DNA from: Opitutales bacterium
GTDB taxonomy: Bacteria > Verrucomicrobiota > Verrucomicrobiia > Opitutales > UBA9783
Length of the DNA stretch: 32,000 nt
Assembly: GCA_024407725.1 (NCBI GenBank)
Contig: JAKSVZ010000002.1
Coordinates: forward strand, 1 to 32,000
Direction: 5' to 3'
Shown: positions 5,174 to 26,545 of the stretch, piece by piece
How the letters are laid out: each line of letters begins with the position of its first letter
How positions within the stretch are numbered: the stretch's first letter is position 1
Made by a program: the position numbers and the translations under genes
Notes under the pieces: generated by a model
The model's database searches: none
The model's input: the letters and a program-made list of their open reading frames with translations, nothing else
What the model was told of the DNA's origin: nothing

Positions 5174-6037
5174 TTAGAACGTTCTACCTACGCCCAAATA
5201 GATTTGGTCGGAATGGAAATTAGCCAGCTTCGGGATTTCGTACCCGTAGCATTTAGCCCCAAACACCTGATGCAAGCCAATATGGCGGTAACCGACTTCA
5301 AATAACGTTTCAAACTTTTCAGCGCGTACAAACAGGCTAAAGTTGTACAGCAACGAGCCGGAATGGATGTACTTACGACGTTCACTAAGCCAAGTACAAG
5401 TAGCCCAATCACCAGCAGCAACATCCCATATTTGCCAATAGTCCAGTGTCGTAAATTTGGTACAGACATAAGCACCACCAAGTCCGCCGCCGATACCAGC
5501 GGATAACCAATCTAAGATATATTGTTCCCAATAGGCATTAACTTGAGCTCCAGCAATGCGTTGGTTTTTGAGATAAAACATTTTTTCATTCCAGTTCCAT
5601 ATCGGATTTCCAGCATTATCTCGTAAATAACTATATCTTAAACCACGAAAATCGGATTGATAAGGTATGTTGACCCCATTAACTTCTTTATTGTAAGGTG
5701 CGCGTTTCTTTACGCTGACATAAGCTCCTAGAATTTCTACTTCTAAGCCTAAAGATCCAATATTGAACACATCGAATCGTCCGCCTAAAGCAACTGATAA
5801 ATTGCGGTGATTGCTGTATGGAATTTTACCCGATGTACAATCAGCGTCTCGTACTATGGCTTCATGTGTTATGCCAATGCCCTCTGGCTCTCCTCGGTTC
5901 CCTTTCTCAAACTGTCCCCAATCGTCTCCCTTCAGCTCCCCAAATCCCGAACGTACCATGACGTACAAACCATAACAGGGAGTACTCATGCCTAAGGTTA
6001 GGCTTAAAGTAAACAACGATATCCAATAGCTACGCAT
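5174..6037 (-). CDS. Outer-membrane beta-barrel protein (family unclear)
   Basis: Signal-peptide-like N-terminus MRSYWISLFTLSLTLGMSTPCYG. Gly/aromatic-rich alternating segments. C-terminus ...YLGVGRTF ends in Phe, as is typical of barrel OMPs. Confidence 0.6.
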   Translation of the reverse strand: MRSYWISLFTLSLTLGMSTPCYGLYVMVRSGFGELKGDDWGQFEKGNRGEPEGIGITHEAIVRDADCTSGKIPYSNHRNLSVALGGRFDVFNIGSLGLEVEILGAYVSVKKRAPYNKEVNGVNIPYQSDFRGLRYSYLRDNAGNPIWNWNEKMFYLKNQRIAGAQVNAYWEQYILDWLSAGIGGGLGGAYVCTKFTTLDYWQIWDVAAGDWATCTWLSERRKYIHSGSLLYNFSLFVRAEKFETLFEVGYRHIGLHQVFGAKCYGYEIPKLANFHSDQIYLGVGRTF

Positions 6038-6114: not shown

Positions 6115-6200
<86 letters not shown>

Positions 6201-6205
<5 letters not shown>

Positions 6206-8525: not shown

Positions 8526-9239
8526 TCAATAATTAAAATCCAGCTGAATCGATGTAATACCTTTTTCGCGGATTAACGAACGCAACTTCGCATCTTGTTC
8601 CTCAAAACCCGGCATGCAATGCACATGCGTTACCACCAACATATGCTTAATTTTTTTGTACAAACCAGTTTCAATCAGTTTAATCACAATCGGGTATTCG
8701 CACCCTTCTACTGCCAGCTTTAAAACATCAATGTCCGTCTGCAAATCCTCAATAAAAGCACATAAATCGATACATTCAATATCGATGGTATCGCCCTTAA
8801 AGCTTTTACGTACGTTATAGATAGAGCTTTCTTCTGAAAAGAAAACATCGTATTTCCCATAAGACTCTAAATACAGTTTCGTATTCAACGGCTTATCTAA
8901 AACTCCCTTTTGATACAAATGGACATTGGGATTCGACCCAAATTTCTTTTGTAATTCTGCGATACACTTGGGATTGGGTTCAAATCCGTAAACAACTGCA
9001 CCCTTTTCGACAAACAATTGCGCTACTTGCCCTAAATTCATCCCGCAATCAATATAAATAGCTCCAGGTTTTAATGCCTGATACCAATCGGTGTTTCGGA
9101 GTTCTTCTAAGCATCGTTCTTCACGACCCGTAGAACCCATCCATTTAACCAACATGGCTCTAGCGCGCTCAGGGAAAGCCCATCGGACGCACGCACGAAT
9201 AACCCCGTTTTCATATAATTTACGCAAAAAATGCTTCAT
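8526..9239 (-). CDS. FkbM-family SAM-dependent methyltransferase
   Basis: SAM-binding-like IYIDCGMNLGQVAQLF followed by VYGFEPNP. The size (237 aa) and layout are typical of the FkbM family. Confidence 0.7.
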   Translation of the reverse strand: MKHFLRKLYENGVIRACVRWAFPERARAMLVKWMGSTGREERCLEELRNTDWYQALKPGAIYIDCGMNLGQVAQLFVEKGAVVYGFEPNPKCIAELQKKFGSNPNVHLYQKGVLDKPLNTKLYLESYGKYDVFFSEESSIYNVRKSFKGDTIDIECIDLCAFIEDLQTDIDVLKLAVEGCEYPIVIKLIETGLYKKIKHMLVVTHVHCMPGFEEQDAKLRSLIREKGITSIQLDFNY

Positions 9240-9364: not shown

Positions 9365-11851
9365 ATGAAACAGCTGGTAATTGCTGAAAAACCAAGCGTT
9401 GCGAAAGATTTAGCGAAAGCGCTAGGGGGATTTAAGACTAATAAAGCCGGATATTTTGAGCGGGATGATATGATTTTATCTTCCGCCTTAGGACATTTGG
9501 TAGAGTTGTATTTACCCGGAGACATTGATAAAAAATATAAATTTTGGACACTCAAAAATTTGCCCATTTTACCGGAAAAATTTCAACTAAAGCCCATTGA
9601 AAAAAGCGCTGAGCGTTTCCATTTTTTAAAAAAGCTGATGGAGCGTTCGGATGTATCAGGGTTAATCAATGCCTGTGATGCCGGTCGCGAAGGGGAATTG
9701 ATTTTTGCGTATCTATGTGAATTGGCGAATTGTAAAAAACCCACGCAACGGTTATGGCTTTCATCCATGACGCCTGATGCCATCCGCGATGCCTTTGATC
9801 ATCTACGAAGCGCCGAAAGTATGCAGTCGTTAGAAGCTGCCGCCCGTTGCCGTTCTGAAGCGGATTGGTTGGTAGGAATCAATGGAACGCGTGCGGTTAC
9901 CGGACGTATGATGGGGAATCGCTCAAAAGATGTTGCGAGCGTCGGTCGAGTGCAAACTCCTACCTTGGCACTGATTTGCGAACGCGAACAAGAAATTCGC
10001 GACTTCAAACCCACTCCTTTTTGGACCCTAGAAGGAACGTTTAAGTTGCACTCAGGTACTTATACGGGTTGGCTTCAGCGCCCAAACTTTAAAAAGCAAC
10101 AGGAAGCAGATCGCAGTGACCGTTTTTGGAAGGAATCGGAAACGCAAGCCTTAATAACCCAACTTAATAGCCTTAAGCCAACGGATTGGGTGGTTCAGGA
10201 CAGCCAAAAACTATCCAAAACAGCTGCTCCGCGTTTGTTTGACTTAACCTCCTTGCAACGTACCTGCAACCAACGCTTTGGGTATTCGGCAAAATTTACG
10301 TTGGATATGGCGCAAAGTTTGTATGAAAAGCATAAAGCGCTCACATACCCCCGTACCGATTCGCGTGCCTTGCCTGAAGATTATGGACCAACCTGTATTA
10401 ACATCCTTAAAAAATTAAGCGGGGCTTATGCACCTTTAGCAACTAAGGTGATTGAACATCATTGGGTCAATCCTCAGTCGAAAATCATTTTTAATAACAA
10501 AGCAATTTCAGACCACTTTGCTATTATTCCAACCGAAATTGCTCCCAAGGAGCTCAAGGAAAGCGAACGAAAGGTATACGATTGCGTTGTACGACGCTTT
10601 ATTGCTGCCTTTTTTCCACCTGCTGAATTTTCAACCACTACACGCTTAACCACTCAGGCTGAGTTAACCTTTAAAACAGAAGGGAAGATACTCGTTCAAC
10701 CGGGGTGGTTAGAAGTAACCGGAAAGCCAGAATCAAAAGAAGAACTGCCTGCCTTAACCCCTGACGATCAGGAGCATGCAACCAGCGAGGCTTTTCAGGT
10801 TCAAGCAGACGAAACGCATCCACCCGCTCGCTTCACCGAAGCGACCTTGTTAACCAGCATGGAGCACGCAGGTCAACAAGTGGAAGATGCGGAATGGGCT
10901 GAAGCCATGAAAGAACGTGGATTAGGAACTCCTGCCACACGCGCTCAAATCATTGAGAATTTAATCGGAGTTCATTATCTCGAACGGGTTGAAAAGCATC
11001 TATGTCCTACGCCTAAAGCTGAACAGCTATTAGCGTTTTTAAACCTAACGCAGGTGCAAGACTTAGCAAGTCCAACCCTTACGGGCGAATGGGAGTATCG
11101 GTTAAATCAGATCCAAGATGGATCTCTGAATCGTGAACAATTCATGGAAGATATAAAGACGATGACAAAGCAGCTCGTGGAAAAGATTACCACGTTCCAA
11201 GACTATCAAAACACGCTAAAGGTGCTAGCTCCAACCGACGGGAAACCAATGATTGAAACCTTTCGGTCGTATCAATCCCAAGATGGCACCTTGGTGATTT
11301 ACAAAACCATCGGTAACCGCAAGTTATCGCTTGAAGAGCTCGGTACGCTGATCAACCAAAAGCGGATTGGACCCCTGACCGGCTTTACCTCTAAATTAGG
11401 CAAGCTTTATACGGCTTCGCTTGTTTTAGGCGATGATTATAAGGTGAAGTTTGAGTTTGAATCCAAAACCGAATCAGCTCCAATCGATTTAAGCCTATGC
11501 GAATGGATCGGAACCTGCCCCCTCTGCGGAGCTAAGGTTTATGTGAATGACCAATCCTTGGTATGTGAACATTTTTTGGAAAAAACCTGCGGATTGCGCA
11601 TCAAACGCACGATTTTGGACTATACCTTATCGAACGATCAGTTGGTATACTTGTTAAAAAATGGTAAAACAGAGCTGATTACTCGCTTTAAATCAAAACG
11701 AACTGGAAAGTTTTTCTCAGCCTATTTGGTGCTCAACAAAAACGGTTCTCTCAGCTTTGAATTTGAGTCCAAAGCCACCAAGGCTACCGATGAAAAGCAG
11801 CCGAAAAAGGCGAAAAAAGCGAAAGCTAAAACAAAAACAAAATCAGCTTAA
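9365..11851 (+). CDS. topB: DNA topoisomerase III (type IA) with two C-terminal repeat modules, a Zn-ribbon and a Lys-rich tail
   Basis: Toprim start MKQLVIAEKPSVAKD. CDAGREGE acidic box. Active-site Tyr context LTYPRTDSRALP. C-terminal CPLCGAKV...CEH ribbon flanked by GKLYTASLVLGDDYKVKFEFE and GKFFSAYLVLNKNGSLSFEFE. Tail is KKAKKAKAKTKTK. I prefer the ATG at 9365 to the ORF-track start at 9293. Confidence 0.85.
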   Translation: MKQLVIAEKPSVAKDLAKALGGFKTNKAGYFERDDMILSSALGHLVELYLPGDIDKKYKFWTLKNLPILPEKFQLKPIEKSAERFHFLKKLMERSDVSGLINACDAGREGELIFAYLCELANCKKPTQRLWLSSMTPDAIRDAFDHLRSAESMQSLEAAARCRSEADWLVGINGTRAVTGRMMGNRSKDVASVGRVQTPTLALICEREQEIRDFKPTPFWTLEGTFKLHSGTYTGWLQRPNFKKQQEADRSDRFWKESETQALITQLNSLKPTDWVVQDSQKLSKTAAPRLFDLTSLQRTCNQRFGYSAKFTLDMAQSLYEKHKALTYPRTDSRALPEDYGPTCINILKKLSGAYAPLATKVIEHHWVNPQSKIIFNNKAISDHFAIIPTEIAPKELKESERKVYDCVVRRFIAAFFPPAEFSTTTRLTTQAELTFKTEGKILVQPGWLEVTGKPESKEELPALTPDDQEHATSEAFQVQADETHPPARFTEATLLTSMEHAGQQVEDAEWAEAMKERGLGTPATRAQIIENLIGVHYLERVEKHLCPTPKAEQLLAFLNLTQVQDLASPTLTGEWEYRLNQIQDGSLNREQFMEDIKTMTKQLVEKITTFQDYQNTLKVLAPTDGKPMIETFRSYQSQDGTLVIYKTIGNRKLSLEELGTLINQKRIGPLTGFTSKLGKLYTASLVLGDDYKVKFEFESKTESAPIDLSLCEWIGTCPLCGAKVYVNDQSLVCEHFLEKTCGLRIKRTILDYTLSNDQLVYLLKNGKTELITRFKSKRTGKFFSAYLVLNKNGSLSFEFESKATKATDEKQPKKAKKAKAKTKTKSA

Positions 11852-12874
11852 CGCGGTTTTGATGATTTCCCAATAACGGCGCACTCTCCACGAATAATGG
11901 GGCTGGAAGAACGTACAATCTCCGCCTTCATAATTTACCAAACCGGTTGACATACAATCTTTGCAAAAATCAACCTTTTGATGCCATAATGGTAGATTTT
12001 CTTTCGTAACATCAAAAACGCTTCCAATGGGTTCTTGAATATTACAACAGGCTATAATTTCTCCCTTTGCGTTCATAGCCAATTGATGATCAAACCAATA
12101 ACAGGTTTTAGATGGTTTAAAGCATTTTGCATTTAATCCCATCAAAAGATCTTCAACGAGGCATTTTAAATATTCTTGTGGTAAAGTATTTTTAATATAT
12201 TGCATCCAGATTTTAAAATCTAATGGAATTGCGTAATAAGGGATAAGCATAACGTTCAACGATTTTGCAAATTCGTAGGCCGCTGGAATTTCATGAATAT
12301 TGAACTGATACACATGAAAACGAATCATAATTCGTCCGATACATCCTCGTTGTCTCAACGTGCGGACCAATGTACGAATATTGTTTTTGATGTGTTCGAA
12401 ATCAAAACGATGAATCCGATCGTAGGATGCCTGGCTAAAACCACACATGGAAATGAACATAGACATAATTGGGCTTGCATCAAAGGTGCTGGGCAACGAT
12501 GGCAAAACATTCGCATTAGTGCTTAAATCCAACAAACATTGCTCTTCGTTTGCGATTTCAACAATTTTTGCAAACTCCGGGTGCAGTAGCGGTTCATACC
12601 AAATATATAAAATTAATTCACTACCAACCGTTAAAAAACCTTTTGCCTTTAAATCCTTAATAATCCTTCGGAAAAGCTCTACATCCATGAATCGATTACC
12701 TTCGCAGACAACAGGCGCATGGTTACGGTTCGCCATTCCCGTTGGGCAAAAATAACATTGAGCGTTACATACCTGACTAATATCCATCAACACCTGATTC
12801 TTTGCTGAATCGGGTAGTTTGCGGTACGCATTAATGCGTTTAATCGTCGATAGGGTTTTTAGGATCTGGGGCAT
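11843..12874 (-). CDS. Radical-SAM enzyme with SPASM/twitch-like Cys-rich C-terminus (paralogue 1, most divergent)
   Basis: CNAQCYFC (CX3CX2C), YEPLLHPEF and LSTNA motifs. C-terminal cysteines KTC...IIACC...FCKDC. Its 3' end overlaps the topB 3' end by 9 bp (convergent). Confidence 0.75.
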   Translation of the reverse strand: MPQILKTLSTIKRINAYRKLPDSAKNQVLMDISQVCNAQCYFCPTGMANRNHAPVVCEGNRFMDVELFRRIIKDLKAKGFLTVGSELILYIWYEPLLHPEFAKIVEIANEEQCLLDLSTNANVLPSLPSTFDASPIMSMFISMCGFSQASYDRIHRFDFEHIKNNIRTLVRTLRQRGCIGRIMIRFHVYQFNIHEIPAAYEFAKSLNVMLIPYYAIPLDFKIWMQYIKNTLPQEYLKCLVEDLLMGLNAKCFKPSKTCYWFDHQLAMNAKGEIIACCNIQEPIGSVFDVTKENLPLWHQKVDFCKDCMSTGLVNYEGGDCTFFQPHYSWRVRRYWEIIKTALS

Positions 12875-12914
12875 TTTTTAAAATGATATTAACATTATCG
12901 TTTGTATGTAAATT

Positions 12915-13973
12915 TTACAAAAAGTATGATAAAGATGGTAAATCGAATTCATCGTTGTCTTCACACTGTATACGCGGGACACCTGCTGCCTTGCAGGTTT
13001 TACAGAATTCAGACGTAGCATAATATGCCTGCAAGCTTTCTGGGGTCATGTTAAATAAACTGCCTATAGGTTTTGGGAACATAACACAAACATTTAAATC
13101 CCCATCCGGATTAATACAGATGTCCGTAAAGGAACATGTATTTACCGGTCCTCTTGGATGGCTACCATGAAACAAATACTGAGACATTAGTGTTAGATAA
13201 TCTACAGGTAACTCTCGATTGTGGTATTTTAAAGCTCGTTCTCCATCCACAAGAAAAGCCCATACGGGCCAAAATCCTATATGTAACGAGCGTGCAAATT
13301 CGGCTGCAGCTTTAATTTCATGTGTGTTAAATTGATAAACATGAAATATTAATGTAAAATATCCTATACAACCATGTGCACGAAATTCATGAACTACTGA
13401 TGCAATATTTTTCTTACACTGTTCAAAATCACTCATAAAAATCTTATCGTAAGATTTTTGACTAAACCCACACATGCTCAGTCTAAAGAAGGAAACACAA
13501 GATGCATCAAATTTATCAGAAAATTTAGGTAAGAAAATTCCATTAGTAGATAAAGAAATGTGACGTTTTTTACGAGTTATGTAATCCATAAACCGTTCGA
13601 ATTCCGGGTGCAGCATAGGTTCGCCCCAGTTATACAAAGCAACCATCTGGTTGTTGTTTGTATGCAAAAAATGCTGTTTTTCTAGGTAATCCAGGATTTT
13701 TTTAAAAAGTTCAAAATCCATAAAATGACCTTTTTCAGTCGGAGCACACCCGTTGCGATTTTTATTTCCGGTTGAACAAAATATACACTTAGAATTACAT
13801 ACGTTGCCTATATCTATATAAAATCCTGTCTCTTTCAGGCATTGTCGATAAGACAAAACGCGTTTTAATGCTTCAAGTTTATTAGGGATAAACTTTGATG
13901 TGCTAATTGTTTTAAGAATCTCCCAGCGTTGAGCTAATTTCAAACATTGATCAATTCGAAATAACTTATTCAT
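12915..13973 (-). CDS. Radical-SAM enzyme with SPASM/twitch-like Cys-rich C-terminus (paralogue 2)
   Basis: CNSKCIFC, NWGEPMLHPEF, LSTNG, C-SFTDI-C-INPDGDLNV-C and FCKTC motifs. Acidic tail CEDNDEFDL. AGGA ribosome-binding site 5 nt before the ATG. Confidence 0.78.
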   Translation of the reverse strand: MNKLFRIDQCLKLAQRWEILKTISTSKFIPNKLEALKRVLSYRQCLKETGFYIDIGNVCNSKCIFCSTGNKNRNGCAPTEKGHFMDFELFKKILDYLEKQHFLHTNNNQMVALYNWGEPMLHPEFERFMDYITRKKRHISLSTNGIFLPKFSDKFDASCVSFFRLSMCGFSQKSYDKIFMSDFEQCKKNIASVVHEFRAHGCIGYFTLIFHVYQFNTHEIKAAAEFARSLHIGFWPVWAFLVDGERALKYHNRELPVDYLTLMSQYLFHGSHPRGPVNTCSFTDICINPDGDLNVCVMFPKPIGSLFNMTPESLQAYYATSEFCKTCKAAGVPRIQCEDNDEFDLPSLSYFL

Positions 13974-14171
13974 ATTATCCTAAACGTAACCTATTGTTTT
14001 TGTAAGTACAACTTATTTTATCAGCCATTGGTTTCTTAAAAAGAAAGATTCTGATATACTAAATTATAATTATAAATTTATGCTAGGTATTACCCAAACC
14101 CCGTTATTCAGCCTTTTAGGGCAAAAAATAGCGGAAGATCCGTTTCGGCTGATCAGTGCGGTTATTTTCTT
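13963..14171. repeat. 209-bp exact duplicate (copy A) of 15396-15604
   Basis: Base-for-base identical by eye at an offset of 1433 bp. It covers the first 11 nt of the radical-SAM gene, the whole divergent intergenic region and the first 92 nt of the membrane-protein ORF. Confidence 0.9.
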
Positions 14172-14214
14172 GTGTGCTATTTTACATATCTGTGCGACAT
14201 TTATCCGCACTTGA
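14080..14214 (+). pseudogene. Truncated duplicate of the 5' end of the 15513 membrane-protein gene; retained as a 44-codon ORF
   Basis: Encodes MLGITQTPLFSLLGQKIAEDPFRLISAVIFLCAILHICATFIRT*. Residues 1-36 are identical to the full-length protein and the upstream region is the same. The ORF terminates just after the duplication junction. Confidence 0.8.
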
Positions 14215-14291
14215 TCATTTGCTGATTCGGGCAGTTTCCGATAAGCCTAGATGTGTTTAATAATTGATAAGATTTTTTAAGATCTTACTTG
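14184..14291 (-). pseudogene. Decayed relic of the 5' end of a paralogue-1-like radical-SAM gene
   Basis: Aligns to 12767-12874. The minus-strand read IKHI*AYRKLPESANDQVRINVAQIC matches IKRINAYRKLPDSAKNQVLMDISQVC. The start codon is lost and there is an in-frame TAG. Confidence 0.75.
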
Positions 14292-14344
14292 TGAGTAAAT
14301 AAATGAAATTGTTTTATGATCCACTTTATCTCAATTACAATCAT

Positions 14345-15406
14345 TTATAAATAATACTTCAAAGCACGTAAATCGAATTCGTCGTCATCTTCGCACAATA
14401 AACGCGGAAACCCTGCAGCTTTGCATTCTGTGCAAAACGGATAAGAATCACACAACGCTTTCCAGGAATCAGGTGTCATATCAAAAATGCTACCCATAGA
14501 CTCTCGAAACATACAACATCGATGTACTCCTCCTCGTGGATTAATACAGAGTTGTGCAAAATGACATGTGTTAACGGGACCACGTTTATGGCCTCCATAA
14601 AACAAGTATTGAAACATTTTACTCAAATATTCTGTTGGTAATTCTCCTTTTAAAAACTGCATGCCTCGCTTTCCATCCACTTGATATGCCCAAACTGGCC
14701 AAAAATCTATATGTAGCGATCGTGCAAATTCAGCCGCTGCTTGAATTTCATGTGTATTAAATTGATAAACACAAAAAATCAAACCAAAACCCCCAATATA
14801 TCCATGATGTGCACGAAGATTTTTAACAAGCGTTGCAATATTGCGTTTACATTGTTCAAAATCCGCCATGAAAATTTTATCGTATGAAGCCTGACTAAAG
14901 CCACACATTGTGAATCTAATAAAACGAATAGAAGATGCATTAACATTTGCCGAAAATTTAGGAAGATAGATTCCATTGGTGGATAACACAATTTTTCGTT
15001 TCTCTTGCGTTAAATAATCAATAATACGCTCGAATTCCGGATGAAGTAAGGGTTCTCCCCAGTTATACAAAGAAATTCGTTGATCTTTTGGGGTATGTAT
15101 AAAACCCACTTCTTTAAGATGAGTCCAAACCTGTTTAAAAAATTCAAAGTTCATAAAGCTGCCTCTTTCTTCAGAGGAGCATCCGTTGCGATTTTTAATG
15201 CCGGTCGAACAAAATAAACATTTCGAATTACACACGTCTCCGATATCAAGGAATATATTATCTACATCCATCTCATGCCGATAACATACTAACTGCTTGA
15301 TAGCCTTTAGTTTATTTGGCACAAATTTTGAAGTACTGATCGTTTTTAAAATTTCTAAAGCTTGATATAGTTTTAGGTGCCTACGCAACCGAAACAACTT
15401 ATTCAT
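14345..15406 (-). CDS. Radical-SAM enzyme with SPASM/twitch-like Cys-rich C-terminus (paralogue 3)
   Basis: CNSKCLFC, NWGEPLLHPEF, LSTNG, C-HFAQL-C-INPRGGVHR-CC and FCTEC motifs. Acidic tail CEDDDEFDL. By hand count, 216 of 352 aligned residues are identical to paralogue 2. Confidence 0.78.
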   Translation of the reverse strand: MNKLFRLRRHLKLYQALEILKTISTSKFVPNKLKAIKQLVCYRHEMDVDNIFLDIGDVCNSKCLFCSTGIKNRNGCSSEERGSFMNFEFFKQVWTHLKEVGFIHTPKDQRISLYNWGEPLLHPEFERIIDYLTQEKRKIVLSTNGIYLPKFSANVNASSIRFIRFTMCGFSQASYDKIFMADFEQCKRNIATLVKNLRAHHGYIGGFGLIFCVYQFNTHEIQAAAEFARSLHIDFWPVWAYQVDGKRGMQFLKGELPTEYLSKMFQYLFYGGHKRGPVNTCHFAQLCINPRGGVHRCCMFRESMGSIFDMTPDSWKALCDSYPFCTECKAAGFPRLLCEDDDEFDLRALKYYL

Positions 15407-15604
15407 ATTATCCTAAACGTAACCTATTGTTTTTGTAAGTACAACTTATTTTATCAGCCATTGGTTTCTTAAAAAGAAAGATTCTGATATACTAAATTAT
15501 AATTATAAATTTATGCTAGGTATTACCCAAACCCCGTTATTCAGCCTTTTAGGGCAAAAAATAGCGGAAGATCCGTTTCGGCTGATCAGTGCGGTTATTT
15601 TCTT
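15396..15604. repeat. 209-bp exact duplicate (copy B) of 13963-14171
   Basis: See copy A. Here the block leads into the intact membrane-protein gene. Confidence 0.9.
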
Positions 15605-16865
15605 ATGCGCCATCCTGCATACCTTTTTCTGCAGTAAATTCAGCACAAAAGCGCGGCAATTGGAGCAGGCGAACTGTGATAGCTACAAAGTATCCATTTT
15701 CCATTGGCTTGGAGAAGTAGAGGTAATTTTTGGATTATGGCTCATTCCGCTTTTATTGAGCTTCATTTGCTTCAAAGGCTGGAATGCCAGTGTTCAGTAT
15801 TTTTCCACGCGGCATTATACCGAACCCATCTTTGTGTGCATCATCATGATGATAGCAGCTACACGTCCTATTTTATACGTAGCAGAACGTTTTATCAATT
15901 TAGCGGTTAACACCCTAGGGGGAGAACGTCCATCCACTTGGTGGTTTTGCATTCTAACCATTGCCCCTTTGTTTGGCTCTCTGATTACCGAACCCGCTGC
16001 GATGACGATTGCTGCCCTGCTCTTGTCGCATAAGGTTTTTGTTTACAAACCGAACGCTTGGTTTTCGTACGCGACCCTAGGCTTGCTGTTCGTTAATGTA
16101 TCCATTGGGGGAACTCTAACCCACTTTGCCGCCCCTCCCATCCTGATGGTAGCCAACACGTGGCATTGGACCACCGCTTATGTATTCTCGCATTTTGGGA
16201 TTAAAACAATCATGAGCGTTATCATCTCAAGCGTACTGTACTTTTTACTCTTTGCCCCTCACTTGCATACGCTCAATAAGCGCGCAAAAATGGAAACGCT
16301 ATCCTCCCAGAATGAACAAAGACTACCGCTGGGAATTATTCTAACCCATGTCGGCTTTTTAACCTGGACGGTGCTCAATGCACACCATACGGCTTTGGTT
16401 GTATTCGGAGGATTGCTATTTTTGATGGTAGCTCAAATCTTTAAAAAGTATCAATCCCCCATGGCGCTCAAAGAATCTCTGTTGGTGGGATGTTTCTTGG
16501 CAGGGCTTGTAACACACGGCGGACTGCAAGAATGGTGGATCGAGGCTGTTTTATCACGGCTCAATGATGCCTGTTTGTTCTACGGATCGGTTATTTTAAC
16601 CTCTTTTAATGATAATGCATCGTTAACCTATCTAGCATCCTTGGTTCCAGCGTTTGCCGATCATTTTCAATTGCAATCAGCGGTGGTTAGCGGCGCAGTG
16701 ATTGGTGGGGGATTAACGGTTATTGCCAATGCACCTAATCCAGCTGGACAATCCATCTTATCCAAGTTTTTTGCCCATAACATCGTAAAGCCCCTACCTT
16801 TGTGCTTAGGTGCTTTATTGCCCACCTGCGTCACGATTTATATCTTCCGCTATTTAATGGGATAG
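15513..16865 (+). CDS. Polytopic inner-membrane protein, probable ion/solute transporter (family not recognised with certainty)
   Basis: 450 aa with roughly 10-12 hydrophobic segments and no soluble domain. Transcribed divergently from the radical-SAM array. Confidence 0.6.
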   Translation: MLGITQTPLFSLLGQKIAEDPFRLISAVIFLCAILHTFFCSKFSTKARQLEQANCDSYKVSIFHWLGEVEVIFGLWLIPLLLSFICFKGWNASVQYFSTRHYTEPIFVCIIMMIAATRPILYVAERFINLAVNTLGGERPSTWWFCILTIAPLFGSLITEPAAMTIAALLLSHKVFVYKPNAWFSYATLGLLFVNVSIGGTLTHFAAPPILMVANTWHWTTAYVFSHFGIKTIMSVIISSVLYFLLFAPHLHTLNKRAKMETLSSQNEQRLPLGIILTHVGFLTWTVLNAHHTALVVFGGLLFLMVAQIFKKYQSPMALKESLLVGCFLAGLVTHGGLQEWWIEAVLSRLNDACLFYGSVILTSFNDNASLTYLASLVPAFADHFQLQSAVVSGAVIGGGLTVIANAPNPAGQSILSKFFAHNIVKPLPLCLGALLPTCVTIYIFRYLMG

Positions 16866-17004
16866 GCTTCTAAAAAAGCAAAACACAAAAAAATTTCGCT
16901 TTTTTAGCGACAGTAAGCCTAAGGGTTATATACTGTTTTTGTCCTTCTAATTTAGCATGAAATGAATTTAAAAGTAAGGATGCTTGGGATCCTTTACTTT
17001 TGAG

Positions 17005-17033
17005 TTGACATTAAGATGAAAAACAGATTAAAT
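17005..17033 (+). promoter_or_regulatory. Candidate promoter TTGACA-N17-TTAAAT
   Basis: Perfect -35, a 17-nt spacer and a 4/6 -10. It lies directly after a strong hairpin (16970-17001) in a gene-free spacer. Confidence 0.35.
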
Positions 17034-17545
17034 TTATCTTAATTTGTATACCATATGCAGTGGACAAAATTATTTTATCCCAACAAGATTTTTTGTCAAG
17101 CTCTTTATAAGAGGGGGATGCTTTGGGGGGACTTTCCCTATTTGTTTTTTATCTGCTAAACGGATCCATTGTACATCACCGAGAAAACACTGATGAAATA
17201 CTCTTTGTGCCTCTGTTTTTTATCGACATGGATTAACAATTACCGTATGATACGGTATTGCCTTTTCTGATTCTGCTTTTCCAAGAAAAAGTTTATTTCA
17301 AAAAAACCATCCTGTCGAGCCTTTTTAAGATAAATCCTAAAAGGATCCTATGGGTTGATTGGGATTTTCCGTCTTTATAAATGAAGGTTAAAACAAGCAA
17401 ACTTACTGTTTTCGCTTGATAGCCCTGTAAAAAAGCAACCGCTCCCAAAGAGGGCATGGGGCATTATAGGTTTATCGTTTAAAAAACCAATTTTTTTAGA
17501 AAAGGCTCATAGTAAAAAGAGAACCTATGAACTTTCGCTTTTTTA

Positions 17546-17574
17546 TTGACATAGGCACATAGGTTGAATAAAAT
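17546..17574 (+). promoter_or_regulatory. Candidate promoter TTGACA-N17-TAAAAT, bracketed by a CATAGGT/ACCTATG inverted repeat
   Basis: Perfect -35, a 17-nt spacer and a 5/6 -10. The inverted-repeat arms at 17558-17564 and 17576-17582 flank the -10. There is no protein gene downstream. Confidence 0.5.
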
Positions 17575-17580
17575 TACCTA

Positions 17581-17815
17581 TGTAAGGAAGCAATCCTCCA
17601 ATTAATGGAATTTTTGTCCCTCAAGCATTCATAGGCTTACAGCAGGTGATAATTGGTAAATTTATCATGTTCTTCTTGGTCTTTTTTAGGAGATTCTCAT
17701 AAAGATTTTAACCAATCCTTATCGAACAGTCAAGGACAAAAGCGGAGCAAGAACCCTAACGAACATTAAAAAATATCGCCTAGAGGGAAACCTTTAGGCG
17801 ATATTCATAGGTTTT
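17581..17815 (+). ncRNA. Candidate small RNA (unit X) running from the 17546 promoter to the shared hairpin at 17773-17804; ends uncertain
   Basis: A promoter with no ORF of 60 aa or more behind it. Contains the core ATAGGCTTAC-agcag-GTGATAAT, also found at 29689-29706 and in degenerate form at 29305-29322. Both ends are inferred, not demonstrated. Confidence 0.3.
17768..17804 (-). terminator. Rho-independent terminator of ald (possibly bidirectional)
   Basis: 14-bp stem ATATCGCCTAGAGG / CCTTTAGGCGATAT (one G:U pair) with loop GAAA. On the minus strand a U-run follows (the A-run at 17768-17772 on the plus strand). It lies 23 nt after the ald stop. Confidence 0.7.
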
Positions 17816-17827
17816 AATAGCTTATGC

Positions 17828-19125: not shown

Positions 19126-21642
19126 ATGACGCACGCTATTGATTCTATCGCTTCCTTTCAACTGGACAATGGTTTGTCGGTTGTGGTTATTCCAACCCAA
19201 TCGCCTGTGTTAGCGCTGCAATTATGGGTAAAAACCGGCAGTATTCATGAAGAAAGTTATTTGGGGGCAGGGCTATCGCACTTTGTAGAACACATGGTGT
19301 TTAAAGGAACGGAAGACTATACCTATCAAGAACTGTTTAAAACCGTTCAAAACGCAGGCGCCAAGCTCAATGCTTATACGACCTTTGACCATACCGTTTA
19401 TACCTTTGACGGAACCGCTTCTGCATTTACAACGGGTCTGGCTATTCTCAACAATTTGGGCTTTAAACCCACCTTTCCGGAACAAGAATGGGGCAAGGAA
19501 CGGGATGTGATTTTGCGGGAAATTGCGCTGTATGCCGATGACCCTGATGACCGCTTGGATACGTTAGTATTATCCACGGCTTATCGCGTTCACCCTTATC
19601 GCTATCCGGTTATTGGCTATCAAAAGCTATTTGAACAACTGACCCTAGATCATTTGAAACAGTACTGGCAAAAGCGGTATGGGGTTAATAATGCGATTTT
19701 GGTCGTTGCCAGTAATCTACCGGACGATCAAATCCGGACGCAAGTAACCTCGGTTTTTGGCGCGCATAGTCAGCGTTACATGGCGCCTTTATGGATTCCA
19801 GACGAACCCTTGCAGTTGGTCGAACGTTCTCAACGCTTAACAGGGCATTATCAATTAACGCGCGGCATTCTTGCGTTTAAAATCCCTGGGTTAGGGCATC
19901 CTGATTTAGTACCGTTGCAGGTCATTGGAACCGTATTAGGCAGCGGCGAAAGCTCCATTTTATACCAAAAACTGCGCAAAGAGCTACGGTGCGTATACCA
20001 AGTGGATACTTCGGTTTGCGCTGAATTATACCAAGGGCTTTTGATCATCAAATACACCTGTGATGCCGACAAACGCACATTGGTTGAGCAACAGCTACAG
20101 GAACATTTGGTTCAATGGACCTTGGATGCCCTAGACCAAAAAGCCATTGATAAGACCTATCGGCAGGCTTTGATTACGGAAATAGATACCAATCGCAGCG
20201 CATCTGAATTAGCTCAGCATATCGGTTGGGTTAAGCTCAATTTTGACGATTTTAGCTATCCGCAGCACTATCTAGATCAACTCAAAACCTTAACGGTTGA
20301 AGCGGTACAAACGGTTATTCATCGGTATTTAATTCCCTCTCAGCGCGTTCAGGTATCCTTAGAGCCCACCCCTCAAAGCACCCCATCCGCAACAGTTAAT
20401 CCGACCTCTGTTCCTCAGCAAAAATTAGCTACCTTTGAACTGCAATCCGTACGCTTGGTCTATCAACGCTGTACGCATTTACCCAAAACCCACATCGTAG
20501 CATTATTTCCAGCAGGAGCTTTGAGGGAAACGCCCCAAGAACGCGGTATTTCGCACCTATTTGCAACCCTGTTAACCAAAGACACCCGCCAACAGTCAGC
20601 CTTGGATATCGCCAATCAAATTGAGGCTATCGGCGGACAATGGCAGGGGTTTGTAGGCAATGATTACCTAGGGTTATCCATTGAAACGTTGGCCGAAAAC
20701 ACCACCTTGGCCATTCAACTCCTACAGGAAGCATTAACCCAGTACAACCTTGTTCCACAAACCTTTAAGGTGGAAAAACAGGCGCAAATTGCCGCCTTAA
20801 ACGACCTACAGGATGACATTACCTATGTCGGTCTTCAAGGGCTCAGACAGCAGTTTTTTCAAAACCATCCTTATGCGGTGCCCCCAAACGGAACTCAGAA
20901 AACACTTGCTGGTATTACCTTGGAGGATTGTCAGCGCTTTGGGGATCGCCTCATTCAAGCCAACAACTGCGTTCTATCGATTGTTTCATCGTTACCTAAA
21001 CAATTCTTTGTGGATGCCTTAGGACCTCTATGCAATACCTTACCAACGGCTTCCAGCTCCAATCATATCTTGGACGATCAGCCCTTTACACCGCAACCTA
21101 CAGAGCGCGTTCCGGTTCATTTTCAACAAGCCATGGTACTCCTAGGGTACCCCATTGCTGGCTATACCCATCCGGATTTCTTAATAGGAGCTTTACTAGA
21201 AACCTTGCTCAATGAAATCTCAAGTGTTTTGGAGGAACCGATACGCGAAATCCATGGCTTAGCGTATACCGTTGGAGCTACCCGTATTCTAGGCAGTCAA
21301 CTCGGCCTGTTAGGCGTATTGGCCAATACCAAAACCGAGCAGGTGGATAAGGTACACCAAGAGATGATTCAATGCATGAATACCCTCCTGACGCACCGCT
21401 TAACCTCTGAAATCTTTACCGCTTGCCGTAATTGCCTAAAAACCAACCGACAAATTTGTTTACAAAGCATAGGTTACCGCGCCTTTACCGCCGGTTACCA
21501 TTGCTTGTTAAAACTCCCCATGAAGGATTATCTATCGTATGATGCCCTCGTCGATTCAATCACCCTTGACGATTTTATCGATCGATGCCATGATTTTATT
21601 GAAAATCCCATTGTACGAATTTTAACCCATCATGATAAATAA
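19126..21642 (+). CDS. M16 (pitrilysin/insulinase-family) zinc peptidase, fused double-domain form, no signal peptide
   Basis: Inverted zinc motif HFVEHMVFKGT in the N-terminal half. The second half is M16-like but lacks HxxEH. Confidence 0.85.
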   Translation: MTHAIDSIASFQLDNGLSVVVIPTQSPVLALQLWVKTGSIHEESYLGAGLSHFVEHMVFKGTEDYTYQELFKTVQNAGAKLNAYTTFDHTVYTFDGTASAFTTGLAILNNLGFKPTFPEQEWGKERDVILREIALYADDPDDRLDTLVLSTAYRVHPYRYPVIGYQKLFEQLTLDHLKQYWQKRYGVNNAILVVASNLPDDQIRTQVTSVFGAHSQRYMAPLWIPDEPLQLVERSQRLTGHYQLTRGILAFKIPGLGHPDLVPLQVIGTVLGSGESSILYQKLRKELRCVYQVDTSVCAELYQGLLIIKYTCDADKRTLVEQQLQEHLVQWTLDALDQKAIDKTYRQALITEIDTNRSASELAQHIGWVKLNFDDFSYPQHYLDQLKTLTVEAVQTVIHRYLIPSQRVQVSLEPTPQSTPSATVNPTSVPQQKLATFELQSVRLVYQRCTHLPKTHIVALFPAGALRETPQERGISHLFATLLTKDTRQQSALDIANQIEAIGGQWQGFVGNDYLGLSIETLAENTTLAIQLLQEALTQYNLVPQTFKVEKQAQIAALNDLQDDITYVGLQGLRQQFFQNHPYAVPPNGTQKTLAGITLEDCQRFGDRLIQANNCVLSIVSSLPKQFFVDALGPLCNTLPTASSSNHILDDQPFTPQPTERVPVHFQQAMVLLGYPIAGYTHPDFLIGALLETLLNEISSVLEEPIREIHGLAYTVGATRILGSQLGLLGVLANTKTEQVDKVHQEMIQCMNTLLTHRLTSEIFTACRNCLKTNRQICLQSIGYRAFTAGYHCLLKLPMKDYLSYDALVDSITLDDFIDRCHDFIENPIVRILTHHDK

Positions 21643-24526
21643 ATCATTTTTGTTTGCTTTTGCTGAATGCTTATGCCTACCGTTGATGGCTCAAACGGTT
21701 GCGTCTGCGAACCCATCAGAGGTTCCGAATCTCCCAAAAATTCATGAAAAAACATCGGCAGAACCCATAAGCCAACAACTATCGTTAGCACCCACCACCT
21801 CTTGGGAACAGCCCCTTGTTGCGGATTCCGCCATTCGTTCCGGAACCTTAGCCAACGGAATGCATTATTATTTATACCCCATGCAGCACCCATCCAATTC
21901 TATTAGTCTCCAGTTGCTCGTACAGGCTGGTGCGCTTATGGAAACAGATGCGGAGGATGGATTAGCTCATTTTATTGAACACATGGTGTTTTGCGGAAGC
22001 CGCCATTTTGAGCCTAAAACCCTCGTACATTTCTTTCAGAAAAACGGAATGAATCTAGGCCCCGATAGCAACGCGTATACCGGTTGGTTTCATACGTGCT
22101 ATCTTTTAGATTTGCCCAATAACGAACCAGCTAATTTACAAAAGGCGTTGACCGTATTAAACGACTTCATGTTTGAAGCCTCATTTCTAAAATCCGAAAT
22201 TGAACGCGAACGAGAGGTCATTTTATCGGAAAAACGCTTACGAGACTCCATAGCCTATCGCGCATCGGTATCGTTTTTAAAGCAGTTTTATCCCGAACAT
22301 CAATTAGGTAAACGCTTCGTCATAGGTACGGAAGACGTAATTAAAGCGGTTACCGCGGAAAACTTTTTTAACTTTTACAAGCAATGGTACACGCCCAACC
22401 GCATGGCGTTGATTATCGCTGGAAACATCGATGCTGATAAGACCTTAACCTTGCTACAAAACACCTTTAAGGCAAGCCGTCCGGAAACCCCTACGCCTGA
22501 TTACGGGACCATCAAACCATTCAAGAAAACCCCCGCGGTATCGGTATATAGCGATAAAGAATTACCCGAAGCTACTTTGTTATTAGCAGCGCGACGTCCG
22601 TTTGCTAATCCGCACCCATCCACATTGAACGATTTTAAGTATTTCGTCACTTGGTCCTTGATGAGCATTATGCTCAATCAACGCTTAAATGAATTGGTCA
22701 ACACAACCGATCTGATTCGCGCAATTTTTGAGCACGAAAACATGGCAGGATGCATCGAAAGCACCAGCTTTTCCTTTTCATGCGCGCACGACCATCTTCT
22801 TAAGATCGTGCCTTTGATCGAACAAGCCTACCGTTCCGTTAACTTGTTTGGCTTTTCCGAACAAGAATTAGCTGCCGCTAAGGTTATTTTGGAAAACAGC
22901 TTAAAAACCGCCTGTATTTCCGAAAAGAACGAAACTCCTAAGCAGCGCGCCGATCGGATGTGCGGGGTTCTAAGCATTAACCAACCGATTATATCCGCTC
23001 CTCAACGGCTGACCCATTTTCAACAAATTCAATCGAGTATTACCCCCCAAACCTGTAAGGAATTGTGGAATTCCTTTTGGAAGAATGGCTATTATTTGTT
23101 CGCCCAAGGTTCGTTTGATGAAAAACTAAACGCTGCCGCCTTAGAAGCTGCGTTCGCCCAATCTCAACAGCAAGCATTACAACAACCGAATCTTTCGCGT
23201 CCAACAGAGTTAAAATCCGTCTTCCCATCCGGTCATCAGGTAAAAATCACTCACTACGTCTATCATCCCGATTTGCAATTGGAAACTTTTACCTTCGACA
23301 ACAATGTACGGGTAAACTTACGACATACAACCTTTGAAAAAGAAAAAATCGATATTCACGTAGCCATGGGTTGTGGATTGATGGAGCACAAGAATCATCC
23401 ATTACCTGGATTGCATTACTTCTTAAACGGAACCTTTATTGAAGGCGGTATTCAGCAATATTCCAAAGTAGAATTGGATCGCCTATTTGAAGGGAAACCG
23501 GTCTCCATTAATTTTTCGGTTAATTCCGATTGCTATGCTTTGTCCGGCCATACCAATCAACGTTATTTGTCGCAAGAATTGCAATTGATTGGCGCTTATT
23601 TGCTACAACCCGGTTATCGCCCTGAGGGAGAAAAGAACTTCCGTAAACACCTACTGGGATTGTACGAAAGCTTTAAGCACGATCCCTTTGGCGTAATGAA
23701 AACCCAAGGCAATGCGTTTATGACCAACAACGATATGCGTATCGCTTATCCCGAGTTATCCGTCATGCAACAACGCACCACAGAAGAAGCACGCGCCTTG
23801 TTGGAGCCTGTCCTACAAAAACAGTATATGGAGCTGACCATCGTGGGGGATTTCGATCGCAACGTGTTACTGGATCAACTATTTAAAACCTTCGGTCAAT
23901 TGCCTGCGCGTGAAGCAACCAAGCACATACCCAATGATTACGAAAATACCTTTTGGCCCACCAAGCGTTCGGTTAAAGTACTAACTTTTCAATCAACGGT
24001 GGATGAAAAAGCAATGGCGGTGCTTTTGTTCCCTTGTAAGGGCGATCAAAATCCCATCTATGCCCGTAAATTAAGTCTTATTGCTTCGATTATTAGCCAT
24101 CGTTTATACGATGAAATTCGAGAAGATTTGGGCGATTGCTATACCGCCAATGCGTGGCTAAGTCAAAACGAGGTCTTTAACCGCGGAGCTATTTTTTCCT
24201 ACTCAATCGTCACCCCTCAAAAATTAAGCACAGTAGCCGACCGCATGCTAAAGATTGCTGACGATATTGCGCATCATGGCGCCACACAAGATGAATTGAA
24301 TCGAGCCATTAAACCCATGGTAGGTACCCTTGAAAAAGCACGGGTCACCAATGGCTTTTGGATGAATTGGATGAGCGGTATTCAAGCCAATCCCCATCGT
24401 TTAACATGGGATTTGGCCAATAGCGCTACTTATACCCAAGTAACCCTTGAGGAAATCAACAAATATGCACGGGATTATCTCAACCGCGGATGGGCCATCT
24501 CCCTGCAGATACAACCTGAAAAGTAA
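21632..24526 (+). CDS. M16 zinc peptidase, secreted/periplasmic double-domain form
   Basis: Signal-like MINKSFLFAFAECLCLPLMAQT. HFIEHMVFCGS zinc motif. The start overlaps the upstream M16 gene by 11 nt. Confidence 0.85.
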   Translation: MINKSFLFAFAECLCLPLMAQTVASANPSEVPNLPKIHEKTSAEPISQQLSLAPTTSWEQPLVADSAIRSGTLANGMHYYLYPMQHPSNSISLQLLVQAGALMETDAEDGLAHFIEHMVFCGSRHFEPKTLVHFFQKNGMNLGPDSNAYTGWFHTCYLLDLPNNEPANLQKALTVLNDFMFEASFLKSEIEREREVILSEKRLRDSIAYRASVSFLKQFYPEHQLGKRFVIGTEDVIKAVTAENFFNFYKQWYTPNRMALIIAGNIDADKTLTLLQNTFKASRPETPTPDYGTIKPFKKTPAVSVYSDKELPEATLLLAARRPFANPHPSTLNDFKYFVTWSLMSIMLNQRLNELVNTTDLIRAIFEHENMAGCIESTSFSFSCAHDHLLKIVPLIEQAYRSVNLFGFSEQELAAAKVILENSLKTACISEKNETPKQRADRMCGVLSINQPIISAPQRLTHFQQIQSSITPQTCKELWNSFWKNGYYLFAQGSFDEKLNAAALEAAFAQSQQQALQQPNLSRPTELKSVFPSGHQVKITHYVYHPDLQLETFTFDNNVRVNLRHTTFEKEKIDIHVAMGCGLMEHKNHPLPGLHYFLNGTFIEGGIQQYSKVELDRLFEGKPVSINFSVNSDCYALSGHTNQRYLSQELQLIGAYLLQPGYRPEGEKNFRKHLLGLYESFKHDPFGVMKTQGNAFMTNNDMRIAYPELSVMQQRTTEEARALLEPVLQKQYMELTIVGDFDRNVLLDQLFKTFGQLPAREATKHIPNDYENTFWPTKRSVKVLTFQSTVDEKAMAVLLFPCKGDQNPIYARKLSLIASIISHRLYDEIREDLGDCYTANAWLSQNEVFNRGAIFSYSIVTPQKLSTVADRMLKIADDIAHHGATQDELNRAIKPMVGTLEKARVTNGFWMNWMSGIQANPHRLTWDLANSATYTQVTLEEINKYARDYLNRGWAISLQIQPEK

Positions 24527-25855: not shown

Positions 25856-26545
25856 TTGCTCCCTGTCTCCAAACCTGCTTTGATTTTTCTTATGGCAAAG
25901 CATAAAAAATGGCTAGGAATCGTTCTGTTGCTTGGCAGCTGTATTTGCTTCTTGTTGCCCCAGAGAACTACATGGGATTGTGCTGGATACACCTTATGCC
26001 CGCATTATTTTAAAACCACGCAAGCAGCTAAGGATTTTGTACAAAGCGCCGATTTTAACGAAAACAAACACTATCGGTATTATTGGTCTTGGACGCTTGT
26101 TTTTTCGGACAACCAAGGCAGTAGATCATCCGATTCTACTGGTTCCCAACCCATTTTATGGGCGTTTTTAAGAATACCGCATTATGGTTGGTTCAAAACC
26201 AAGCCCGACAAATGGGTACGCTTGGTATTAGCACAACAAATACAAGCTCAAATACCCCATCGAACGGTAGAAGTTCAAGGCAATGCAATCCTCGTTGATC
26301 ATCAAAGGATTGGAGTGTGTATCGCACAAGAAGAGCGTAATGGAGCATTTTGGGATTACGTAATCGAATTAGCGCTCAATACCCCTAAGGACGCTCTAGC
26401 TGGCACCTCATTTAATACCTCGTTAGCATTAGAATCCCAACAGGTCTATAACAGCGAAACCTTCTTAAAAGCCTTTTGGGTTGCTTTTCTGAAAAATCGA
26501 GACCCAAGATCGTTCGATCTTAAAACTCCTTTGCCAGAGTGGTAG
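25856..26545 (+). CDS. Hypothetical membrane-anchored or lipoprotein-like protein
   Basis: ORF from a TTG, with an alternative ATG at 25892 (MAKHKKW...). Hydrophobic N-terminus with a lipobox-like LLGSC. No domain recognised. Confidence 0.45.
   Translation: MLPVSKPALIFLMAKHKKWLGIVLLLGSCICFLLPQRTTWDCAGYTLCPHYFKTTQAAKDFVQSADFNENKHYRYYWSWTLVFSDNQGSRSSDSTGSQPILWAFLRIPHYGWFKTKPDKWVRLVLAQQIQAQIPHRTVEVQGNAILVDHQRIGVCIAQEERNGAFWDYVIELALNTPKDALAGTSFNTSLALESQQVYNSETFLKAFWVAFLKNRDPRSFDLKTPLPEW

Follow-up and report, generated by a model that had tools for sequence, protein, structure and literature searches.

What three neighbouring radical S-adenosylmethionine (SAM) genes might be doing at a site where no partner gene adjoins them is the question raised by a stretch of 32,000 nucleotides from a gut Opitutales bacterium (GenBank assembly GCA_024407725.1, contig JAKSVZ010000002.1, positions 1 to 32,000), hereafter called the window. 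Our analysis places the trio, as new members, among the radical-SAM enzymes of probable twitch type, an enzyme kind already known, in a large and uncharacterised family. We lean towards a carbohydrate as their substrate, with much lower confidence in any single chemistry. The three genes and the spacers that belong to them are as follows, L011 being a sister genome (Verrucomicrobia UBA3869):

11843-12874, minus strand: radical-SAM copy 1, intact open reading frame (ORF) of 343 amino acids (aa), Pfam Radical_SAM 29.6 bits
12875-12914: spacer between copy 2 and copy 1, 40 bp, AT-rich, guanine-plus-cytosine (GC) content 0.15
12915-13973, minus strand: radical-SAM copy 2, intact ORF of 352 aa, Pfam Radical_SAM 44.6 bits
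14192-14344: spacer 3' of copy 3, 153 bp, unique, resembling nothing in the window or in L011
14345-15406, minus strand: radical-SAM copy 3, intact ORF of 353 aa, Pfam Radical_SAM 33.0 bits

The initial annotation of this DNA had described three radical-SAM paralogues of 343, 352 and 353 aa, and the ORFs, the quoted motifs and the Pfam Radical_SAM (PF04055) scores agree with that description, since all copies lie above the gathering score of 29.5 bits, copy 1 marginally. The cluster motifs are CNAQCYFC (copy 1), CNSKCIFC (copy 2) and CNSKCLFC (copy 3); all three proteins carry (Y/G)EP(L/M)LHPEF, LSTN(A/G) and the C-terminal Cys pattern, and the acidic tail CED(N/D)DEFDL is found in copies 2 and 3. 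A global alignment reproduced the 216 identical residues among 352 aligned between copies 2 and 3 (61.4%), as well as the larger distance of copy 1, which is 41.3% identical to copy 2 and 40.9% to copy 3. The database entries for the three proteins read 'radical SAM protein' or 'hypothetical protein'. One deposited entry, P0002, is copy 3 begun at Met46 (308 aa); the product is more likely to be the 353-aa form, because the 45 upstream codons are in frame and conserved at the protein level with copy 2 (MNKLFR…ILKTISTSKF).

The C-terminal third of the proteins had been likened to a SPASM or twitch domain, and the twitch part of this proposal is the better supported one. SPASM domains (PF13186/TIGR04085) have 7-8 Cys in the order CX9-15GX4C, gap, CX2CX5CX3C, gap, C, and two auxiliary clusters. 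The twitch domain is an abbreviated SPASM with the CX9-15GX4C beta-hairpin, further Cys and one auxiliary cluster, as in BtrN, MoaA, SkfB and BlsE. PF13186 gave no match at E <= 1 for any copy, and among the relatives SPASM was matched by P0026 only, the most distant one. The motif observed is C-x10-G-x4-C…C-x2-C, corresponding in copy 2 to C280, C296, C324 and C327, with the CX9-15GX4C spacing. These four Cys are invariant in 30/30 family members and in about 150/152 of a wider set, and in the family a further near-invariant Cys stands directly beside C296, forming a CC pair. As four ligands suffice for one cluster, the domain appears to be twitch-like and not a full SPASM, with one auxiliary cluster; this is backed, although not proven, by the motif and the overall fold.

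Structural comparison was made with an AlphaFold2 model of copy 2 (predicted local distance difference test, pLDDT, 84.6), which is of alternating beta/alpha type, with a hairpin and helices predicted in the Cys region; it also shows the helical N-terminal extension, of ~50 extra aa, that copies 2 and 3 have in comparison with typical family members. In a Foldseek search of this model against the PDB, radical-SAM structures appeared at probability 1.00, with BlsE at the top (E 1.9e-7) and further matches to SuiB, viperin, anSME, DesII, EpeE, SkfB, MoaA and BtrN. All of them had a template modelling score (TM) of about 0.5, and no solved structure was nearer than that. The family profile, compared with PDB sequences, found CteB, BtrN, GDGT-MAS, BlsE and anSME, and HMMER paired the first two C-terminal Cys of the family with the matching Cys of CteB and BtrN.

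The best full-length fold match, over 344 aligned columns, is BlsE (cytosylglucuronate decarboxylase, PDB 7vob), a radical-SAM enzyme whose C-terminal domain holds an auxiliary cluster and whose substrate is a sugar acid. BlsE is also found by sequence (E 1.6e-6), but identity is 14%, TM is 0.50-0.53, the TIGR04466 model gives 19-21 bits against a cutoff of 400, and BlsE belongs to a nucleoside-antibiotic pathway and not to a glycan locus. The prototype of the twitch enzymes, BtrN (2-deoxy-scyllo-inosamine dehydrogenase, PDB 4m7t), has a carbohydrate-like substrate and was matched by sequence with E 3.3e-9. The first two C-terminal Cys of the family align to those of its 'SCMVPS…PCFEDF' segment, in a weak alignment (i-Evalue about 4), and both proteins have the spacing C-x(15-18)-C, gap, C-x2-C; the BtrN cluster ligands we take to be Cys169, 187, 232 and 235. 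However, its Foldseek TM is 0.39-0.53, and BtrN is about 100 aa shorter and has neither the FHVYQFN nor the GFSQxSY motif. The full SPASM enzymes anSME, SuiB and CteB share the radical-SAM core and the CX9-15GX4C hairpin, but the family keeps 4 C-terminal Cys in place of 7-8, and has no RRE and no peptide or sulfatase context.

Among the structures, those of viperin gave the best target-normalised TM, about 0.62. Together with PADLOC pVip matches (E 1e-7 to 1e-8) and with genes that are AT-rich, strain-variable and in tandem, this would suit viperin-like antiviral enzymes that make modified nucleotides and were expanded as a defence island. However, the pVip matches reach 27-33 bits over the N-terminal core only (about profile positions 6-150 of 257-262), and NF038283 gives 20-28 bits against a cutoff of 180. 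Furthermore, the family has the conserved four-Cys auxiliary domain, and viperins are not known to have such a domain; no match was found in 50,697 phage records, and the context of the family is one of glycans and not of defence. A viperin-like role is therefore highly improbable.

To which family, then, do the three proteins belong? The initial annotation recognised none, and in the NCBIfam profile search the trio likewise falls in no well-characterised subfamily: no curated subfamily was approached, with all scores far under the cutoffs. The top match was TIGR04317, the tungsten cofactor oxidoreductase maturase model (63-69 bits against a cutoff of 380), and MoaA, spiro-SPASM, ScmF, BlsE, viperin, AlbA and others scored lower still. 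All three copies match over their full length a profile whose signature is CNxxCxxCxTG, WGEPxLHPE, LSTN, GFSQxSYxKIH and FHVYQFNxxE plus the four C-terminal Cys. Another 149 members keep these motifs, and the copies carry them with the exceptions given below. We refer to this group as the HVYQFN family, a label that is defined in this analysis and has no curated model behind it. A word-indexed protein search returned 26 matches only; an exhaustive profile search returned 940 representatives at E <= 1e-30 (clusters at 50% identity). In GTDB species genomes, taking one genome per species, there are at least 590 family loci, distributed in Firmicutes, Desulfobacterota, Planctomycetota, Proteobacteria, Gastranaerophilales (Cyanobacteria-related), Nitrospirota and one methanogen. 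A literature search found no characterised member of the family.

An indication of function comes from the genomic company of these relatives. The first neighbourhoods inspected were glycan clusters with Wzy, Wzm/Wzt, RmlA/B/C/D-type proteins, WbsX, GT2/GT4, and TylF- and CmcI-type methyltransferases. For the counts, 751 neighbours of 73 family loci were clustered, and the following neighbours recurred:

GT2: 24/73 loci
DegT aminotransferase: 17/73 loci
ATP-binding cassette ATPase (Wzt-like): 15/73 loci
NDP-sugar dehydratase/epimerase: 14/73 loci
SAM methyltransferase, typically adjacent: 12/73 loci
RmlC-like cupin: 9/73 loci
TPR-GT41: 9/73 loci
WbsX: 8/73 loci
CmcI: 8/73 loci
Wzm: 7/73 loci
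sugar C-methyltransferase: 6/73 loci
B12 radical SAM protein: 5/73 loci
flippase: 5/73 loci
flagellin: 4/73 loci

A glycan-type neighbour was present within 7 kb at 48/73 loci or more, and two or more kinds at 33/73. In addition, the long members of the family are fusions with GT2, WbsX, GT1/GT4 or methyltransferase domains, and true members occur in annotated glycan loci on plasmids of Lawsonia intracellularis and Methylocystis. Several family copies per locus, as in the window, were observed at 12/73 loci. Typical members (LI_RS06565 of L. intracellularis, P0014 and P0019) match the profile over their full length with all signature motifs, as the trio does with its exceptions; they differ in lying within, or being fused to, glycan genes, whereas the trio is orphan and substituted at near-invariant positions.

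These contexts bear on another explanation, in which the enzymes would mature a protein, cofactor or lipid encoded elsewhere, being anSME-like, tungsten-enzyme-maturase-like, or lipid-modifying like GDGT-MAS/Tes or HpnH. The leading position of TIGR04317 speaks for it, as do weak matches to MoaA, Tes and HpnH, the presence of GDGT-MAS and anSME among the PDB sequence matches, and the orphan position of the genes in Verrucomicrobia, which suits a target encoded elsewhere. However, the scores are far under the cutoffs (e.g. 69 against 380 bits) and arise mainly over the part common to radical-SAM enzymes in general. Genes for a sulfatase, an aldehyde oxidoreductase or lipid enzymes do not recur near family members at the 73 loci, the fusions of the family are with glycosyltransferases, and in the window neither a sulfatase nor an aldehyde oxidoreductase gene was found beside the trio. 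We consider this explanation unlikely.

Since the family elsewhere lies in, or is fused to, genes for the biosynthesis of cell-surface sugar chains, the trio is probably glycan-tailoring and not peptide-modifying. According to this proposal, the N-terminal [4Fe-4S] cluster would cleave SAM to a 5'-deoxyadenosyl radical, and the radical would take a hydrogen from a sugar carbon, either of a nucleotide-sugar or of a sugar residue in a surface glycan or glycoprotein that is still being built. The single auxiliary cluster, presumably bound by C280, C296, C324 and C327, could position the substrate or handle an electron. The outcome might be an epimerisation, oxidation, dehydration or decarboxylation, like those of BtrN, DesII, BlsE and HygY, and the substrate pathway would be encoded elsewhere in the genome.

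Several points weigh against this proposal. The figure of 48/73 is a raw count, without a baseline for glycan-type neighbours of random genes, and the glycan inference for the trio is indirect because it is drawn from relatives that are 25-35% identical. The comparison of gene neighbourhoods in relatives, which the initial annotation had suggested, revealed the glycan context across the family, but a glycosyltransferase or nucleotide-sugar gene adjoined the radical-SAM gene in 0/5 of the closest Verrucomicrobia loci, and none did in the window. The chemistry is a guess, because no family member is characterised. With respect to the C-terminal domain, its profile alone, compared with PDB sequences, found no solved twitch or SPASM domain and gave one spurious methyltransferase match; a domain-only model (pLDDT 73) ranked anSME and SkfB first, without significance (Foldseek E 2.8-6.6). 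Finally, each copy misses 1-3 near-invariant residues of the family, which could mean altered or lost activity.

These residues are different in each case. Copy 1 has G->Y in the near-invariant WGEP (WYEP), and copies 2 and 3 have H->F in KIH (KIF); copy 3 has in addition H->C in FHVYQFN (FCVYQFN) and S->T, and copy 2 has C->V in the CC pair (V297). The different losses, taken with the purifying selection described below, are read here as functional divergence and not as decay. Because each copy replaced different near-invariant residues, the copies probably differ in specificity or chemistry.

Within the Verrucomicrobia clade, carbohydrate links are thin but present. An ArnA-like formyltransferase of ~346 aa directly adjoins radical-SAM orthologues in three Opitutales settings (L009, L010 and L094/L095). 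Its best match is the N-terminal UDP-Ara4N formyltransferase domain of ArnA (121-123 bits), and it lies well under the Fmt cutoff; the pair may be a two-gene amino-sugar module. The formyltransferase beside the Opitutales radical-SAM orthologue is located as follows:

L009, 11175-12212: ArnA-like formyltransferase
L094, 2005-3045: ArnA-like formyltransferase
L010, 63-827: ArnA-like formyltransferase

Besides, a radical-SAM paralogue is divergent from the flagellar export genes fliQ/fliR in L013 (1110-3318) and L093 (660-2773). The formyltransferase beside P0020 in L005 was also considered as a glycan link and discarded, being PurN, a housekeeping enzyme. In the L094 (777-1752) and L095 (704-1679) metagenome contigs, the gene calls split the radical-SAM orthologue P0010 into one part of 269 aa and an overlapping ORF of 74 aa, and the gene is probably frameshifted or pseudogenised there.

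What do the immediate neighbours of the trio say? The initial annotation reported a convergent 9-bp overlap with topB, a divergent polytopic membrane gene and no accompanying ORF of 60 aa or more, and all of this was reproduced: copy 1 and topB overlap at 11843-11851, no credible further ORF of that length is present, the gaps between genes hold short ORFs alone, and no partner gene adjoins the trio. The membrane gene, divergent from copy 3, is the following:

15513-16865, plus strand: Na_H_antiport_3 (PF07399) polytopic membrane protein, 450 aa, Pfam E 5e-157

This gene had been proposed as a possible exporter of a modified peptide or small molecule. Maturation of a ribosomally synthesised and post-translationally modified peptide (RiPP), or of a small molecule, deserved attention because SPASM/twitch radical-SAM enzymes are often peptide maturases; SuiB, CteB and SkfB are among the full-length fold and sequence matches, weak NCBIfam matches point to sactipeptide and ryptide maturases, and a pair of M16 peptidase genes lies 4 kb away. 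However, none of the three copies has an RRE or PqqD domain (Pfam, E <= 1), and the NCBIfam RiPP maturase models gave 13-24 bits against cutoffs of 300-850. None of the ORFs resembles a precursor gene, the short ones being an antiporter fragment and overlapping noise. The partners and fusions of the family are carbohydrate-related (nucleotide-sugar, glycosyltransferase, sugar methyltransferase and Wzm/Wzt genes).

The comparison with L011 argues in the same direction. Its flanking proteins are 90-97% identical to those of the window, and its gene order is H+-PPase, topB, one radical-SAM gene, antiporter, short-chain dehydrogenase/reductase (SDR), alanine dehydrogenase, M16, M16. The antiporter is syntenic and 90% identical. 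Its conservation in place beside a single radical-SAM gene indicates a housekeeping-type neighbour and not a dedicated exporter, and the M16 pair is likewise kept there. In a second contig of the copy-1 type, the single radical-SAM gene lies beside a cut, unannotated divergent gene, which is probably the antiporter. Peptide or small-molecule maturation with export by this membrane protein is thus improbable, and an orphan SPASM/twitch enzyme need not be a peptide maturase.

The history of the locus can also be approached through L011. The sole radical-SAM gene there (9989-11026) is the orthologue of copy 1, with 78.7% aa identity and an equal 9-bp overlap with topB. At the DNA level, L011 lacks any counterpart of the window segment 12875-15527, which comprises copy 2, a repeat, copy 3 and intergenic sequence. 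Copy 1 is thus the ancestral, vertically inherited resident of the topB/antiporter locus. Between it and the L011 orthologue, the nonsynonymous rate (dN) is 0.144 and the synonymous rate (dS) 0.98, with dN/dS 0.15; the flanking genes have dN 0.015-0.057 and dS 0.26-0.67. Furthermore, GC at third codon positions (GC3) is 0.375 in copy 1 against 0.465 in the orthologue, all of which hints at allelic replacement of copy 1 at the locus.

Fast divergence of the paralogues had also been proposed. Copies 2 and 3 show dS of about 2.4, which is saturated, and dN/dS of 0.11, and these values do not show fast divergence; they indicate that both copies are old and selectively maintained, with an old divergence under purifying selection. 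With respect to the proposed paralogue expansion, the genes are paralogues, but not the product of a simple local triplication. In a bootstrapped neighbour-joining tree, copies 2 and 3 pair with 100% within a Verrucomicrobia-specific clade (95%), and they lie outside a group (84%) formed by the copy-1 orthologues and the MutY/T2SSE-locus orthologues of other Opitutales; consequently, they are not recent duplicates of copy 1. No closer relative of copies 2 and 3 was found in 5.8 billion proteins, nor any close relative of copy 3 in the metagenomes of the Joint Genome Institute (JGI).

The AT-rich composition noticed in spot counts was borne out by computation and is strongest in copies 2 and 3. 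GC is 0.385, 0.352 and 0.363 in copies 1, 2 and 3, against 0.445 ± 0.017 in the 18 other genes of the window; GC3 is 0.375, 0.289 and 0.285, against 0.434 ± 0.028, an offset of about -2 standard deviations in copy 1 and of about -5 in each of the other two. In stable Verrucomicrobia orthologues, the GC3 z-score ranges from -0.5 to +1.1, and the second paralogue in L013, a metagenome-assembled genome (MAG), has z = -3.0. Low GC3 is therefore not a family trait in Verrucomicrobia, and for the variable copies this speaks in favour of an import from, or recombination with, a relative of higher AT content. Copies 2 and 3 would belong to an old, AT-rich sister lineage that either persisted nowhere else or came in from a verrucomicrobial relative not yet sampled.

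A repeat that carries the divergent intergenic region adds another element to this history:

13957-14191: repeat A, duplicate of the copy-3/antiporter divergent intergenic region
14080-14214, plus strand: 44-aa pseudo-ORF, truncated copy of the antiporter N-terminus (MLGITQTPLFSLLGQKIAEDPFRLISAVIFLCAILH…)
15390-15624: repeat B, functional divergent intergenic region and 5' end of the antiporter gene

The direct repeat measures 235 bp, and its core of 209 bp (13963-14171 = 15396-15604) is 100% identical. Repeat A, located in the 371-bp gap that separates copies 2 and 3, contains the first 6 radical-SAM codons, the entire divergent intergenic region and the first 37 antiporter codons, so that copy 2 (and copy 1, 40 bp downstream of it) shares its upstream region with copy 3. 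Copies 2 and 1 may be co-transcribed, judging by their 40-bp spacing alone. The pseudo-ORF could be mis-annotated as a small peptide gene beside radical-SAM enzymes. The 20 bp that follow the core differ at 7 sites, of which 5 are third codon positions in the antiporter frame, and the peptide is unchanged; in this tail the fragment, the resident antiporter gene and L011 have three different alleles. Given the synonymous saturation of the genes on either side, the identical 209-bp tract must be young, and this suggests gene conversion between two old repeats, or a recombinational import that used the homology. Such a late event would have left the identical repeat and, with it, a common upstream region for copies 2 (and 1) and 3. 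A scan for promoters and terminators across 11700-15700 gave fewer promoter-like sites than in shuffled sequences and no convincing terminators.

A perfect 209-bp repeat flanking strongly diverged genes could also be the mark of an assembly artefact, i.e. a chimeric join of strain alleles, or the trio could consist of decaying, non-functional duplicates. The sequence comes from a MAG, an independently assembled version of the junction was not found, the JGI metagenomes do not contain the 26-mer at the junction, and each copy has lost near-invariant residues. Nevertheless, the three ORFs are intact, with dN/dS of 0.11-0.15. Moreover, past the repeat, the junction enters the 153 bp of unique sequence and not a shared k-mer path, and the last 20 bp of the fragment are a third allele, unlike the resident gene and L011. 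The unique sequence and the third allele are easier to reconcile with a genuine, older duplication than with a graph artefact. We regard artefact or decay as quite improbable and retain the interpretation of three maintained genes. The locus is a compact case of a conserved site that gained accessory enzyme genes, and in which a repeat carrying a promoter has stayed identical.

Although the trio itself is a modest curiosity, the family is large, is present in many phyla and has a clear signature. It is tied to glycan loci of O-antigen, capsule and flagellin type, and its reaction, once known, would be a new step in bacterial glycan biosynthesis. As a tentative and rather doubtful extension, the HVYQFN family might perform an as yet undescribed radical tailoring of glycans or glycoproteins at the cell surface and, to judge from the glycosyltransferase fusions, might do so on the polymer. 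The Opitutales array would then be a series of specificity variants, diverged and shuffled by recombination, that share a duplicated promoter and diversify the cell surface in the gut, for instance for evasion of phage or host. If so, the loss of Cys in copy 2 and of His in copies 2 and 3 would mark switches of reaction outcome, e.g. between epimerase and dehydrogenase.

Members or distant relatives of the family are present in the pathogens Lawsonia, Clostridium botulinum and Brachyspira, in the last case in a virulence-associated block. This block, on pBHWA1 of Brachyspira hyodysenteriae (L089 8947-18120), has six radical-SAM/SPASM genes, one between rfbF and rfbC and five in tandem, with the pattern C…C(C)…CxxC. 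It resembles the window in its tandem radical-SAM paralogues with the same four-Cys pattern, and it lies in an rfb/glycosyltransferase locus. The resemblance is distant, since the block proteins score 59-86 bits against the family profile, compared with 270-390 for true members, and do not have HVYQFN; furthermore, a glycan cluster surrounds the block, whereas the trio of the window is orphan. Part of the block is strain-variable and associated with colonisation and virulence, as an association only (PMC4267127).

Other features of the window can be mentioned. The Rfam and tRNA scans gave a tRNA-Ser (6116-6205) as sole match, the gaps being empty. Neither Pfam nor NCBIfam gave a match for three sizeable ORFs of 744, 287 and 229 aa, located at 89-2323, 5174-6037 and 25856-26545. 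Between the antiporter and alanine dehydrogenase genes, 962 bp (16866-17827) are AT-rich (GC 0.34) and ORF-less, with no remnant of the 279-aa SDR gene of L011 (L011 7696-8535) and no Rfam match. The two tandem M16 (insulinase-type) peptidase genes (19126-24526, plus strand; 838 and 964 aa) overlap at their ends and are 92-93% identical in L011, and nothing points to a connection between them and the radical-SAM genes. The ugd gene, a loose carbohydrate link, is located in the window at 7 kb from the trio. Finally, a strain-variable methyltransferase gene lies between the H+-PPase gene and topB, 2.6 kb from the trio:

8526-9239, minus strand: FkbM-family methyltransferase, Pfam Methyltransf_21 and TIGR01444, GC 0.399

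As a glycan-tailoring companion of the trio, this methyltransferase is a possible but unproven candidate. Its interior (8583-9190) is missing in L011, where the ORF ends are kept, so that L011 probably lost the gene by a 608-bp deletion.

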